Below, one piece after another: positions 4,573 through 7,175 of a stretch of DNA of 64,000 bases. Position 1 is the first letter of the stretch. Every line of letters begins with the position of its first letter. Below the pieces are notes generated by a model that was not told the DNA's origin, did no database searches, and was given only the letters and a program-made list of their open reading frames with translations. The DNA comes from Fidelibacterota bacterium (GTDB taxonomy: Bacteria; Fidelibacterota; UBA2242). Position numbers and translations under genes: made by a program. The stretch covers positions 6,096-70,095 of the forward strand of contig DAOTJS010000005.1 of NCBI GenBank assembly GCA_035448825.1, given 5' to 3'.

Positions 4573-6123
4573 CTATAAAGGAATATTGCCATGTTTCTTA
4601 GATGGAAGAGTATCGCGCTTATTAGAAAGCATCTCCAGCGTTTTGATCAATTTGTAGCGCGTAATTTTGGGCTCGATCACTTCATCAATGTAGCCTTTGG
4701 AAGCGGCGACATAGGGATTGGCAAATTTTTCGCGATATTCTTCGACTTTTTCGGCAAAACGCTGTTCCGGATTTGCGGCAGTTTTGAGATCATGCGCAAA
4801 GATAATTTCTGCGGCGCCTTCCGGACCCATTACGGCTATTTCCGCACTTGGCCAGGCGAAGCTATAATCACCGCGCAGTTGGCGGGAATTCATAACGCAG
4901 AATGCGCCGCCGTAGCCTTTGCGCGTAATGACCGTGATTTTGGGAACGGTTGCCTCGGCAAAAGCATAGAGCAATTTCGCACCGTGCTTGATAATGCCAT
5001 TGAATTCCTGTGCGGTACCTGGCATAAATCCCGGCACATCTTCGAAAGTAATGATGGGGATGTTGAAACAATCGCAGGTGCGCACGAAACGAGCGGCTTT
5101 GTTCGAAGCGTTAGTATCAATAACGCCGGCTAGCGATCTGGGTTGATTGGCGACAATGCCGACGACTTTGCCGTTTAACCGGCCGAACCCGATCAGCATA
5201 TTAGGGGCATACAACGCCTGAACTTCGAGGAATTGGCCGTTGTCCAGAACTTTGGCGAGGATTTCCTTCATATCGTAAGGCTTATTGGGATTTTCGGGCA
5301 CGATATAGTTCAAGTCCTCGTCAATGCGATCAACCGGATCGGTCGGGGCAATCGCCGGTGGCTCTTCCATATTGTTCTGCGGTAAATAGCTCAGCAGTTC
5401 ACGGATACCGGCGAACAGACCTTGTTCGTCGTCATAGGTAAAATGAGTGATACCGCTTTTGCTGGCGTGGACGTCAGCACCACCCAGTTCATCGGCAGTG
5501 ACATCTTCATGGGTAACGGTTTTGACAATTTTCGGACCAGTCAGGAACATATAGGCTGATTTTCTGACCATAAAAATAAAATCGGTCAGAGCCGGTGAAT
5601 AAACCGCGCCGCCGGCACAAGGTCCAACAATAGCGCTGATTTGAGGAATAACACCTGAATAAAGTACATTCCGCAGGAAAATTTCAGTGTAACCAGCCAG
5701 CGAATCCACCCCTTCTTGAATTCGTGCACCTCCGGAGTCATTGATACCGATTAACGGAGCGCCGACTTTGGTAGCCATTTCCATAATTTTGACAATTTTT
5801 TCAGCGACGACTTTAGACAGTGAACCGCCGAAAATCGTGAAGTCAAAAGAATAAACGAATACGACTCGACCACTGATGGTACCATAACCGGTTACGACAC
5901 CGTCGCCGAGAAATTTCTTTTCAGCCATACCGAAATCGGTGCAGGAATGAGTGCGGAAGGCATCTATTTCCTCAAAACTGTTCGGATCGAGAAGTAATTG
6001 CAGGCGCTCGCGAGCAGTCAGCTTGCCGCGCTGATGCTGTTTTTCAATGGCTTCCGCACCACCGCCCATTCTGGCAAGTTCCATTTTATCTTTTAATTCA
6101 AGTAATTTGCGTTGACGACTCAT
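4573..6123 (-). CDS. mmdA: methylmalonyl-CoA decarboxylase alpha subunit (carboxyltransferase, PccB/AccD fold)
   Basis: 516 aa. The N-terminus GKLTARERLQLLLDPNSFEEID and the rest are typical of acyl-CoA carboxyltransferases. AAGGAG lies just upstream of the ATG. It is clustered with oadB-, oadG- and BCCP-like genes. Confidence 0.9.
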   Translation of the reverse strand: MSRQRKLLELKDKMELARMGGGAEAIEKQHQRGKLTARERLQLLLDPNSFEEIDAFRTHSCTDFGMAEKKFLGDGVVTGYGTISGRVVFVYSFDFTIFGGSLSKVVAEKIVKIMEMATKVGAPLIGINDSGGARIQEGVDSLAGYTEIFLRNVLYSGVIPQISAIVGPCAGGAVYSPALTDFIFMVRKSAYMFLTGPKIVKTVTHEDVTADELGGADVHASKSGITHFTYDDEQGLFAGIRELLSYLPQNNMEEPPAIAPTDPVDRIDEDLNYIVPENPNKPYDMKEILAKVLDNGQFLEVQALYAPNMLIGFGRLNGKVVGIVANQPRSLAGVIDTNASNKAARFVRTCDCFNIPIITFEDVPGFMPGTAQEFNGIIKHGAKLLYAFAEATVPKITVITRKGYGGAFCVMNSRQLRGDYSFAWPSAEIAVMGPEGAAEIIFAHDLKTAANPEQRFAEKVEEYREKFANPYVAASKGYIDEVIEPKITRYKLIKTLEMLSNKRDTLPSKKHGNIPL

Positions 6124-6145
6124 TTATGCTCCTTGTTTAATTTAT

Positions 6146-6284
6146 TTGACAAGATTAACTCCGAAGGAGTCTCTGATGAGACAAGATTGACATTTTACTA
6201 TTTTTGACAAGATTAACAAGATTGACTTTTTTTCTTTTGACAAGATTAACTCCGAAGGAGTCCCGCTTGGCGGGACAAGATTGA
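6146..6284. repeat. left-flank array: six copies of GACAAGATT(A/G)A plus two ACTCCGAAGGAGTC+hairpin units
   Basis: Motif copies start at 6148, 6180, 6206, 6216, 6239 and 6274. Composite units lie at 6153-6188 and 6244-6282. The array overlaps the 3' tail of the GxxExxY ORF. Confidence 0.85.
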
Positions 6285-6688
6285 TTTGATTGTTTTAATG
6301 ATCTTATTTTACGTTTTATTTCGACTTTCTCTTCTCCGAAATTTATTAGTAGTCCAATATTTATTCCGGTAGCTGTTAGGTAATTCACTAATTGAACTTC
6401 GTGACTTTTCGTCAAAGTAGCCACAGATTTTAATTCAACGATTATTTTTTCTTCAACAAAAAGGTCAGCAATAAAATGTCCGACAATTTGGTTATCATAA
6501 TAGACATCGATTGCTTTCTGAAATTCGGACTTCAAACCTGCTTTAGTCATTTCGATTATCAGAGCCTTTTCATAGACGGACTCTAAAAATCCAAATCCCA
6601 GGTTTTTATAGACTTTGTAAGCACAACCGATTATGGCGGCTGTCAATTCCTTCTCCTTGTATAACTCTTCGTGTATTTTATTATCCAT
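6155..6688 (-). CDS. GxxExxY protein (PD-(D/E)XK nuclease-like, PDDEXK_3 type) with a repeat-encoded C-terminal extension
   Basis: GFLESVY is the GxxExxY motif, and the body ..IADLFVEEKIIVELKSV..QLVNYL..GLLINFGEEKVEIKRKI matches the family. Family members are usually about 125-135 aa. The last ~45 codons here (VNLVKRKKVNLVNLVK..) simply translate the flanking repeat. Confidence 0.8.
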   Translation of the reverse strand: MDNKIHEELYKEKELTAAIIGCAYKVYKNLGFGFLESVYEKALIIEMTKAGLKSEFQKAIDVYYDNQIVGHFIADLFVEEKIIVELKSVATLTKSHEVQLVNYLTATGINIGLLINFGEEKVEIKRKIRSLKQSNQSCPAKRDSFGVNLVKRKKVNLVNLVKNSKMSILSHQRLLRS

Positions 6689-6718
6689 CTTAGTTCTAAA
6701 TATTAATAAACAACATGT

Positions 6719-6768
6719 AAATCTTGTTAATCTTGTCTAATTAATCTTGTCTAATTAATCTTGTCTAA
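6719..6768. repeat. right-flank array: the same motif in inverse orientation (TTAATCTTGTC), with three perfect 14-nt tandem copies
   Basis: TTAATCTTGTCTAA occurs three times at 6727-6768, preceded by a degenerate copy at 6719-6727. Bases 6755-6765 are the exact reverse complement of 6148-6158. Confidence 0.85.
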
Positions 6769-6770
6769 AA

Positions 6771-7175
6771 CTACCTCTTTTCCTCACAGATTTCAGTCAA
6801 GACCTTGCCAGTGGATTTCGGGTGCAGGAAAGCAATGCGAGTATGATGCGCGCCGCCTCTCGGCTTTTCGTCAATCAAGGCAACATTATGTTTTCTTAAA
6901 AATTGCAGTTCTCGTTCGATGTTGTCGCTTTGGTAAGCCAGATGATGCAAACCTTCGCCTCTTTTCTCGAGAAATTGGGCAATTGGACTATCGGGCGCGG
7001 TGGCTTCGAGTAATTCGATCCGGGTTTCACCGACCTGAAAGATGGCGGTTTTGACTTTCTGATCGGCAATTTCTTCAATGCCGACGAACTTTAATTGCAA
7101 AATATCCCGGTAAAACGGAATGTGTTCAGCGATTGAATTGACCGCAATGCCGATGTGGTTGAGTTTTTTTATCAT
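6771..7175 (-). CDS. mce: methylmalonyl-CoA epimerase (VOC/glyoxalase fold)
   Basis: 134 aa: LNHIGIAV..ETRIELLE..GEGLHHLAY..RIAFLHPKS. The context is the mutase genes. Confidence 0.9.
   Translation of the reverse strand: MIKKLNHIGIAVNSIAEHIPFYRDILQLKFVGIEEIADQKVKTAIFQVGETRIELLEATAPDSPIAQFLEKRGEGLHHLAYQSDNIERELQFLRKHNVALIDEKPRGGAHHTRIAFLHPKSTGKVLTEICEEKR

Follow-up and report, generated by a model that had tools for sequence, protein, structure and literature searches.

A GxxExxY (PD-(D/E)XK-like) gene bracketed by inverted sub-repeat arrays in a methylmalonyl-CoA operon

What is a small nuclease-like gene, bracketed by inverted repeats, doing between two enzyme genes of a methylmalonyl-CoA operon? 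The question is raised by a 64,000-nucleotide stretch of contig DAOTJS010000005.1 from a Fidelibacterota bacterium (assembly GCA_035448825.1; the whole stretch is called the window here), where the operon mcm-mcmB12-meaB-mce-X-mmdA-gamma-BCCP-beta occupies 2.5-10.2 kb of the minus strand. X is an open reading frame (ORF) of 177 amino acids that belongs to the GxxExxY, or PDDEXK_3, family and is the only GxxExxY gene in the window. An earlier, sequence-only reading had taken gene and repeats for a small selfish cassette or, as an alternative, the repeats for an operator array of some binding protein; its placement of a GxxExxY ORF between mce and mmdA is confirmed by the coordinates and by Pfam and NCBIfam matches. 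We favor another account, to which we give a probability of roughly 0.55, namely that the locus would be an old inherited copy of a widespread nuclease gene together with its cognate inverted sub-repeat module, analogous to the repetitive extragenic palindromes (REP) and the REP-associated tyrosine transposases (RAYT). The descriptive finding is solid, and the mechanism that we attach to it is a hypothesis.

Repeat arrays around the gene

We collected 80 loci of 20 kb, with relatives of 50-69% identity, from species-representative genomes of more than 10 phyla (Planctomycetota, Verrucomicrobiota, Calditrichota, KSB1, Cloacimonadota, Desulfobacterota, Bacteroidales, Armatimonadota, Hydrogenedentota, Lentisphaerota and others), and scored the flanks of each gene by the best ungapped inverted repeat, with a threshold of at least 13 and a shuffle maximum of 12. 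The 70 GxxExxY genes so scored represent more than 10 phyla and a contig labelled archaeal; an inverted repeat that reaches the threshold brackets 48 of them, compared with 0 of 173 size-matched control ORFs of the same loci. Forward arrays upstream combined with reverse arrays downstream were found at 47 of 75 independent loci and at least one array at 67 of the 75, and even the loci that counted as array-less still hold variant words, for example ACAGAAT or GGATAA-type hairpins. The arm nearly always follows the form TTTWG(ACARGAT-N1-2)x2-4, mostly with the word ACAGGAT and a (T)TTWG outer end, and no conservation was seen beyond the T-run. The sub-repeats recur with a period of 9 nt (92 cases) or 8 nt (39 cases), in 86 of 101 cases the period of one arm mirrors that of the other, and the median distances are 47 nt from the end of the left arm to the ATG and 16 nt from the stop codon to the start of the right arm. 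Some genes lie outside hairpins, either in a reverse-gene-forward layout or flanked by complete hairpins. The package also occurs on a contig labelled Methanoperedens (an archaeon), where a 70%-identical gene sits in an unrelated context, between AbiGi and CTP synthase, and is flanked by ACAGGAT arms consisting of GACAGGATTAACAGGATCGACAGGAT and its reverse complement (26 nt at 96%).

More distant relatives, of 34-59% identity and located on replicons of cultured organisms, keep the layout with other words:

Bacteroides finegoldii, gene between radA and a FAD protein gene: sub-repeat CACAGAGGA three times, with the mirror image downstream.
Bernardetia, gene between ade and manC: sub-repeat CACAGAGA three times.
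Gemmatirosa, context not annotated: sub-repeat ACTGAAGAAGG three times, with an 11-nt period and a 42-nt inverted repeat.

Treponema and a Fusobacteria plasmid have flank repeats but no clear inverted arrays, those of the Fusobacteria plasmid being direct repeats. The comparisons show the gene and its inverted arrays to be one conserved module, both parts of which are under selection, and they show a repeat word that co-varies with the protein subfamily in a constant layout. The earlier claim that gene and inverted repeats make up one unit has therefore stood, as the same package recurs in unrelated contexts across many phyla and on the contig labelled archaeal.

At the window locus, the motif GACAAGATTRA occurs in 8 exact copies, compared with 0.08 expected, and 0 of 100 shuffles reached 8. 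Its 8-nt core, ACAAGATT, is present in 10 copies that are inverted around the gene, and in 1 copy elsewhere in the 64 kb. The sequence-only reading had counted six copies on the left and four on the right; ten cores are indeed present, but those at 6216 (the sixth on the left) and 6720 (the fourth on the right) are truncated and retain only the core. Its three perfect 14-nt tandem units (6727-6768) and its outermost 11/11 inverted repeat, which lies within an inverted pair at 6145-6158 and 6755-6768, were both found again, so that all of its factual statements hold, and the best inverted repeat of the flanks measures 18 nt. It had also proposed a search for the 11-mer near other GxxExxY genes, where the word family proved to be strongly enriched; the exact form in the window is a local one, as all window sub-repeats carry ACAAGAT, a variant of the family-wide ACAGGAT, and both forms are mixed in single arms elsewhere. 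The parts of the arrays are as follows:

6148, 6180, 6206, 6239 and 6274, plus strand: exact copies of GACAAGATTRA downstream of the gene.
6727, 6741 and 6755, minus strand: exact copies of GACAAGATTRA upstream of the gene.
6714-6740, minus strand: upstream (left) arm of the shared type, TTAGACAAGATTAACAAGATTTACATG in gene orientation, with two sub-repeats of 9-nt period, ending about 25-31 nt before the ATG.
6206-6226, plus strand: right arm of the shared type, downstream of the gene; it reads GACAAGATTAACAAGATTGAC, mirrors the upstream arm and forms inverted pairs with it.
6741-6768, minus strand: two extra 14-nt tandem units, TTAGACAAGATTAA in gene orientation, with a copy number that is polymorphic between strains.
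6148-6190, plus strand: two further right-arm sub-repeats (6148-6158 and 6180-6190) and a hairpin, ACTCCGAAGGAGT (6158-6170).
6239-6284, plus strand: two further right-arm sub-repeats (6239-6249 and 6274-6284), the 13-nt hairpin for a second time (6249-6261) and a GC hairpin, GTCCCGCTTGGCGGGAC (6260-6276).

The upstream arm of the shared type is kept in loci L010, L017, L021 (as ACAGGAT) and L106 and is probably the ancestral type, and the right arm of the shared type stands directly after the stop codon in L010, L014 and L017. From sequence comparison, both arms of the window were amplified by tandem duplication. Downstream, a 36-nt duplication links 6136-6171 to 6227-6262, and each lineage amplified its right arm in its own way, in tandem units of 33-35 nt. 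The upstream 14-mers differ among strains of the same species (L001-L009): the window and L002 have 3 units, L007 has 2, and seven other strains, including L001, have 2 units with the variant TTATACAAGATTAA. The downstream array is without variation between strains, and the region 6239-6284 is invariant among 9 strain contigs. The mce stop codon and the outermost repeat are 3 nt apart, and the last right-arm copy holds the TAA stop of the ORF and lies 25-35 nt before the ATG of mmdA.

Inheritance of the mce-mmdA copy and its gene-less relatives

The closest homologs of the window protein are named Candidatus Neomarinimicrobiota or Marinimicrobia, and orthologs of 70-92% identity occupy the slot between mce and mmdA in related Marinimicrobia species, among them all five that were looked up, down to 70% identity. 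The ratio of nonsynonymous to synonymous substitution rates (dN/dS) among these slot orthologs is 0.06-0.18 at a dS of about 1-2; selection has long kept the protein, at a fixed position. In the same comparisons, the arms are 92-100% identical, as against 35-46% for synonymous sites: GACAAGATTAACAAGAT upstream, with its mirror image just after the stop codon, is identical in the window, L010 and L017 and agrees at 22 of 24 positions in L021, as ACAGGAT. As judged from these alignments, the window copy is old, vertically inherited and under strong purifying selection, not recently inserted, and the idea of a newly arrived cassette is not supported for it.

The length of the window ORF, 177 amino acids, departs from the 120-135 that are typical of the family. 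Eleven close homologs (81-89% identity) have 132 amino acids and end in ...KRKIRSLK, and the matches to PF13366 PDDEXK_3 (E 7e-41; 139.7 bits, cut-off 22) and TIGR04256 GxxExxY (E 3e-42; 143.5 bits, cut-off 35) cover only amino acids 13-127 of the ORF and stop at 126-127, before the tail. The 45 extra residues align to nothing and are absent from all 132-residue orthologs, and a relative of 92% identity (P0001) has a different tail. The tail reads as a stop-loss read-through (TAA>CAA) of 45 codons into the right arm, not as a domain, and the core is intact. A translated repeat is what the sequence-only reading had seen in it, and we found no conservation of the tail as protein in homologs. For annotation, the 177-residue ORF is to be read as a 132-residue gene with a stop-loss tail. 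The coding features and the neighboring genes are as follows:

6155-6688, minus strand: GxxExxY ORF, 177 amino acids, between mce and mmdA.
6293-6688, minus strand: conserved GxxExxY/PDDEXK_3 core, amino acids 1-132, defined by Pfam and NCBIfam matches, invariant columns, the AlphaFold 2 model and dN/dS.
6290-6292, minus strand: stop-loss codon CAA, which is TAA in orthologs (window compared with L010, L014, L017 and L021).
6155-6289, minus strand: non-conserved read-through tail, amino acids 134-177, and stop codon (6155-6157), the translated downstream repeat array.
6771-7175, minus strand: mce (methylmalonyl-CoA epimerase), upstream neighbor; Pfam Glyoxalase_4, with homologs named methylmalonyl-CoA epimerase.
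4573-6123, minus strand: mmdA (carboxyltransferase subunit), downstream neighbor; Pfam Carboxyl_trans, E 9e-198.

The ATG of mmdA (6121-6123) lies 31 nt beyond the ORF and has a Shine-Dalgarno sequence, AAGGAG, at 6130-6135, whereas the GxxExxY start codon has no recognizable one in 6689-6713 (TTTAGAACTAAGATG); the missing Shine-Dalgarno sequence suggests low translation of the nuclease.

Other Marinimicrobia may record how such a slot decays. In a related member, L106 (3432-3683; also L107), the slot holds an 83-amino-acid GxxExxY remnant in which an in-frame internal deletion removed the D...ExK catalytic core and both arms were kept, and this looks like an intermediate toward a gene-less palindrome. 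The sequence-only reading had called for empty mce-mmdA junctions in related genomes. The more distant L108 and L109 (3409-3472) do lack the gene, but their 64-nt spacer includes an arm-like GGTCAATCACGTCAAAAA and contains GGTCAATCACGTCAAAAATAATC, which resembles a degenerate right arm, so the site may reflect loss rather than one that was never occupied. On a contig labelled Calditrichota (L020, 3961-4423), a 71%-identical GxxExxY gene with the arms GACAGGATGAACAGGAT and ATCCTGTTCATCCTGTC lies between meaB and the gene of the mcm large subunit, a second occurrence in a methylmalonyl-CoA operon and in a different slot.

Palindromes with the same arms but without the gene are scattered near the loci. 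Double sub-repeats number 284 in 1.08 Mb of loci and 0 in shuffles; of the 284, 79% have a GxxExxY ORF no more than 300 nt away, and the remainder are mostly forward/reverse pairs that form palindromes at a distance of 0.3-9 kb. Gene-less arrays at such distances were seen in about 18 of the 80 loci. The forward-to-reverse pairs are bimodal, with 52 that enclose GxxExxY (379-580 nt) and 64 that are gene-less (mostly 8-240 nt). One pair only has other cargo, a 207-amino-acid minus-strand ORF (L088, 6013-6837) that is nucleotidyltransferase-like by a weak similarity to NTP_transf_5 below the Pfam cut-off, and L077 holds a fragment, a decay intermediate alongside L106. A metagenome scan with an exact 18-mer of the window gave, among the 80 matches listed, 3 that adjoin a GxxExxY gene; besides sister Marinimicrobia loci and some chance coding matches, the list includes at least 25-30 clear gene-less palindromes with the same ends, and no further loci of the window's own genome. 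Gene-less derivatives with the same arms thus do exist. Target-site duplications do not: across 96 distinct elements, the observed number equals the expected one for k = 2-8. Between the arms of the window nothing is encoded besides GxxExxY, with no recognized transposase (DDE, HUH, serine or tyrosine), and no integrase was found within the 20-kb flanks.

Several loci have local arrangements of their own. In L089 (5960-7480), a single GxxExxY gene has at its flanks four gene-less elements of about 230 nt that are nearly identical to one another, with duplicated N-terminal gene fragments (MEHEELTKEIIG...) between them, which indicates local tandem amplification of units made up of an arm and a gene start. 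In L090 (10428-10800), a GxxExxY gene is directly followed downstream by three palindromic elements in tandem, each about 125 nt long and with ACGGGAT/ACAGGAT arms. Forward-only ACAAGAT arrays begin 12 nt downstream of a tRNA-Ser gene on two unrelated contigs (L122, 729-934; L131, 1056-1073), and the GxxExxY ORF of L131 is 3.6 kb from its array. In one Bacteroides assembly (L237, 5198-5346), a gene-less palindrome (CACAGAGGA three times and TCCTCTGTG three times) stands directly after the stop codon of a GerE-family gene; its arms read TTCAC(CACAGAGGA)x3...GTGAA, as at the Bacteroides gene, and four related assemblies differ at that place.

The protein and a possible mode of action

The protein is predicted to be a minimal RecB/Cas4-like PD-(D/E)XK nuclease of about 125 amino acids. 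The GxxExxY motif (G33-E36-Y39) and the PD-(D/E)XK triad (D75, E85-x-K87) are present and invariant in an alignment of 57 homologs, and E36, D75, E85-x-K87 and Q99-xxx-Y103, all invariant, make up the motif set of the RecB family. The AlphaFold 2 model has a predicted local distance difference test score of 91.9, and its best fold match in the PDB is Cas4 SSO0001, followed by a Spirosoma restriction-endonuclease-like protein, MGME1 and lambda exonuclease, with TM-scores of about 0.5; a sequence search of the PDB gave no match, and PADLOC gave a weak match to a Cas4 hidden Markov model. The protein shares the fold and the motif set E, D, ExK and QxxxY with the Cas4/RecB nucleases (SSO0001, AddB, lambda exonuclease and MGME1), but it is about half their size and lacks the four-cysteine iron-sulfur cluster of Cas4, C22 being its only cysteine invariant in the 57 homologs. 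Unlike Cas4, it has no CRISPR or helicase partner in the window, where its neighbors are methylmalonyl-CoA genes. The family comprises 16,070 clusters at 50% identity, and a survey of PD-(D/E)XK proteins from 2012 lists PF13366 as 'Unknown, multiple transfers' (Steczkiewicz, PMC3424549). About 20 of the best 150 family representatives (P0361, P0362, P0364-P0366 and others) have 250-277 amino acids and two tandem GxxExxY domains, and such fusions suggest a dimeric working unit.

How might a nuclease of this kind and its arrays work together? We infer binding, cleavage and mobilization, in the following sequence. The tandem sub-repeats of an arm would be occupied by several nuclease subunits, probably one for every word, and the DNA so bound is probably single-stranded or folded into a hairpin or cruciform. 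The nuclease would cut at or near the arms, and host repair or replication would then propagate or maintain both gene-carrying and gene-less palindromic copies. The module could be likened to a single-copy RAYT that services REP or REPIN elements, again without target-site duplication.

In REP-RAYT systems, a gene kept as a single copy by vertical descent has its cognate repeats at its flanks (PMC5581495, PMC3337134, PMC8266576, PMC3733652). Common to these (REP/REPIN-RAYT, also TnpA-REP) and to the present module are a single-copy, vertically inherited, selection-maintained gene of nuclease type with cognate palindromic repeats inverted at its flanks, gene-less palindromic doublets in intergenic DNA, a repeat that changes with the protein clade and the lack of target-site duplication. 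The enzymes differ, however, as RAYT is an HUH/Y1 (IS200-like) transposase and the only Pfam match here is PDDEXK_3, with a RecB/Cas4-like fold. The repeats differ as well: a REP is a single imperfect palindrome of 20-40 nt with a GTAG/CGTC tag, whereas the arms here have 2-4 tandem 7-nt words with a period of 8-9 nt, no such tag and an outer end of the consensus TTTWG|ACAGGAT. REP are dispersed at high copy number in a genome; the 64 kb of the window contain no array outside this locus, and gene-less arrays accompany the gene in about 18 of the 80 loci of 20 kb. The module described here also occurs on a contig labelled archaeal. As enzyme class and repeat anatomy differ, the module is not a member of the REP-RAYT family.

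Other systems resemble the module in part. Miniature inverted-repeat transposable elements (MITEs) and their parents, such as the insertion sequence (IS)-derived MITEs and those of the Correia/NEMIS type, share the terminal inverted repeats and a series that leads from gene-carrying copies (about 0.45-0.6 kb here) through internally deleted ones to short palindromes whose ends are identical; here, in contrast, there is no target-site duplication and no recognized transposase, and the gene-carrying copy is fixed and conserved, not multi-copy and decaying. IS200/IS605 elements and integron attC sites have in common with it a small enzyme, folded palindromes as the likely substrates and no target-site duplication, but their enzymes are HUH transposases or tyrosine recombinases, not of the PD-(D/E)XK type, and they have asymmetric subterminal hairpins in place of symmetric inverted arrays. 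An integron cassette, moreover, has a single attC at its 3' end and depends on an integrase and attI, whereas the arrays here stand on both sides with no integrase or attI nearby. A homing endonuclease gene would sit in an intron or intein or would cleave the gene-less allele; no intron or intein is present here, and the gene is free-standing in an intergenic spacer.

Competing explanations and consequences

Of the other explanations, the one that survives best, which we nevertheless regard as improbable, places the function of the arms in RNA. The arms would pair in the operon transcript and loop out the ORF, and the stem would be a substrate of RNase III or of GxxExxY itself as an RNase, or would insulate or stabilize the flanking cistrons. 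The repeats would then be kept so that the operon can bear the insertion, as in 23S rRNA intervening sequences or REP elements that stabilize mRNA. Intervening sequences of 23S rRNA carry a short ORF (of the four-helix-bundle S23p family), are bounded by inverted repeats and are tolerated in a transcription unit because their ends pair. The present module differs from them in its host, which is not an rRNA gene, in the fold of its protein, in its conserved sub-repeat sequence and in the lack of evidence for RNA excision.

Several observations agree with a role in RNA. The gene is co-directional with both neighbors in 38 of 61 loci, with short gaps. No promoter or terminator was found between mce and mmdA, the promoter scan being at background. 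Contigs of a related-strain metatranscriptome (90-99% identity, depth 2-3) cover window positions 6656-6869, that is, the end of mce, the repeats and the start of the gene, as well as 6468-6626 in the gene interior. With neither a promoter nor a terminator signal in the spacer, and with one thin RNA contig running across the junction of mce and the gene, transcription of the gene probably comes by read-through from mce. Read-through was a point that the earlier reading had wished to see checked by RNA sequencing, and the low-depth contigs hint at it and at transcription of the gene. RNA-splicing endonucleases are part of the PD-(D/E)XK fold class and are among the weak fold matches here, and nested long-range helices surround the ORF in the predicted fold of the mRNA (z -5.7).

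The fold score, however, follows trivially from the inverted repeat, and the mismatches between arms have no strand bias (38 G:T vs 31 A:C) and are mostly non-wobble (126 of 195). A plain stem would not need the primary sequence of the sub-repeats, which is conserved across phyla, nor would pairing explain why the sub-repeats within one arm are alike, and the genes that lie outside hairpins do not fit it. Rfam had no match in the window region, and nine related loci gave only sub-threshold miRNA-hairpin noise. These observations point to a constraint on the sub-repeat sequence rather than on pairing. Two further RNA-level candidates were set aside: an intrinsic terminator, since on either strand an A-run comes after the hairpin, and CsrA-type GGA sites (ACAGGAU resembles the repeats of CsrB), since the window has AGA instead, every second copy is antisense and the motif occurs on the contig labelled archaeal.

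An active selfish transposon or homing cassette that was recently inserted into the operon, which was the earlier proposal for this copy, is still less probable. Its inverted terminal arrays, the unrelated contexts in which the module is found in different phyla and on the contig labelled archaeal, a relative without the gene at the slot and the MITE-like gene-less copies are what such an element would leave. Yet the orthologs in the same slot, with their saturated dS and low dN/dS, speak of age; target-site duplications are lacking, as is any recombinase of the DDE, HUH, serine or tyrosine class; identical copies did not turn up in a second context; and a relic resembling an arm persists at the 'empty' site, in keeping with loss. 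PHROGs gave no match for the protein, and a scan of viral contigs gave no relatives, because of which we consider the element not phage-borne.

We give slightly less weight again to operator arrays, either as sites for a transcription factor or for a GxxExxY autorepressor whose catalysis would be irrelevant, that regulate the methylmalonyl-CoA operon by looping. Multiple short sites do stand on both sides of the gene, TTGACA-like hexamers occur at the arm ends, and in L020 the interval between meaB and mcm, again part of a methylmalonyl-CoA operon, contains a second GxxExxY gene. The arrays, however, flank GxxExxY in dozens of unrelated operons and are gene-less elsewhere, the catalytic residues are invariant, the spacing of the sub-repeats varies between 8 and 9 nt, and the motif is unchanged on the contig labelled archaeal, where promoters differ. 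The TTGACA in the arm was considered as part of a sigma-70 promoter and rejected, as there is no consistent -10 element and the scan does not rise above background. The alternative of the sequence-only reading, an operator for another binding protein, loses its ground in that GxxExxY is the only constant neighbor of the arrays across phyla and that the word changes with the subfamily. The mce-mmdA spacer is to be treated as an element, not as regulatory DNA of the operon. Chance or replication slippage that produced low-complexity DNA unrelated to the gene can be dismissed: slippage does occur, as the varying 14-mer copy number between strains tells, but eight exact 11-mers against 0.08 expected, a motif conserved across species at saturated dS and a family-wide recurrence set against 0 of 173 controls are far beyond it.

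The account of an old nuclease gene with a cognate repeat module has points to answer as well. Binding of the repeats by the protein is deduced solely from their co-occurrence and co-variation, strand transfer is beyond the capacity of a lone nuclease, and the arms would also pair in the polycistronic mRNA, so a role at the RNA level is possible. No second array exists in the 64 kb outside the GxxExxY locus as a sign of a REP-like dispersed population in this genome. Nor do identical proteins point to recent transposition, as they were seen in one context only each, in the window family and in Bacteroides, whose protein is indexed in thousands of assemblies and at every place read lay in the slot between radA and the FAD protein gene. 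The switch from ACAGGAT to ACAAGAT was considered as a case of concerted co-evolution and given up as weak, since both forms co-occur in single arms and position 4 is thus simply degenerate.

A wider reading, which we offer tentatively and hold to be somewhat less probable than its application to this locus, is that the GxxExxY/PDDEXK_3 proteins are the dedicated nucleases of an unrecognized pan-prokaryotic class of palindromic repeats. Each subfamily would recognize its own tandem arrays of 7-11-nt words and would maintain or spread palindromes, both gene-carrying and gene-less, without target-site duplication, probably acting on hairpin or single-stranded DNA with non-HUH chemistry. The way of life of REP-RAYT would then have been invented a second time, independently, from a minimal Cas4/RecB-like fold. 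Full-text literature searched by family names, accessions and 16-mers gave no description of the repeats.

The finding matters first for the family itself, as PF13366/TIGR04256 is among the larger prokaryotic families of unknown function, its members sit inside the housekeeping operons of gut Bacteroides and of many uncultured phyla, and the cognate arrays give it a concrete candidate substrate. The finding also defines an unnamed class of intergenic palindromes, which would otherwise be read as terminators or MITEs. If the proposed mechanism is true, a nuclease of 125 amino acids with sequence specificity that depends on the subfamily would be of interest as a tool, and the GxxExxY module would join REP-RAYT as another example in nature of genomic repeats serviced by a nuclease that is inherited vertically.

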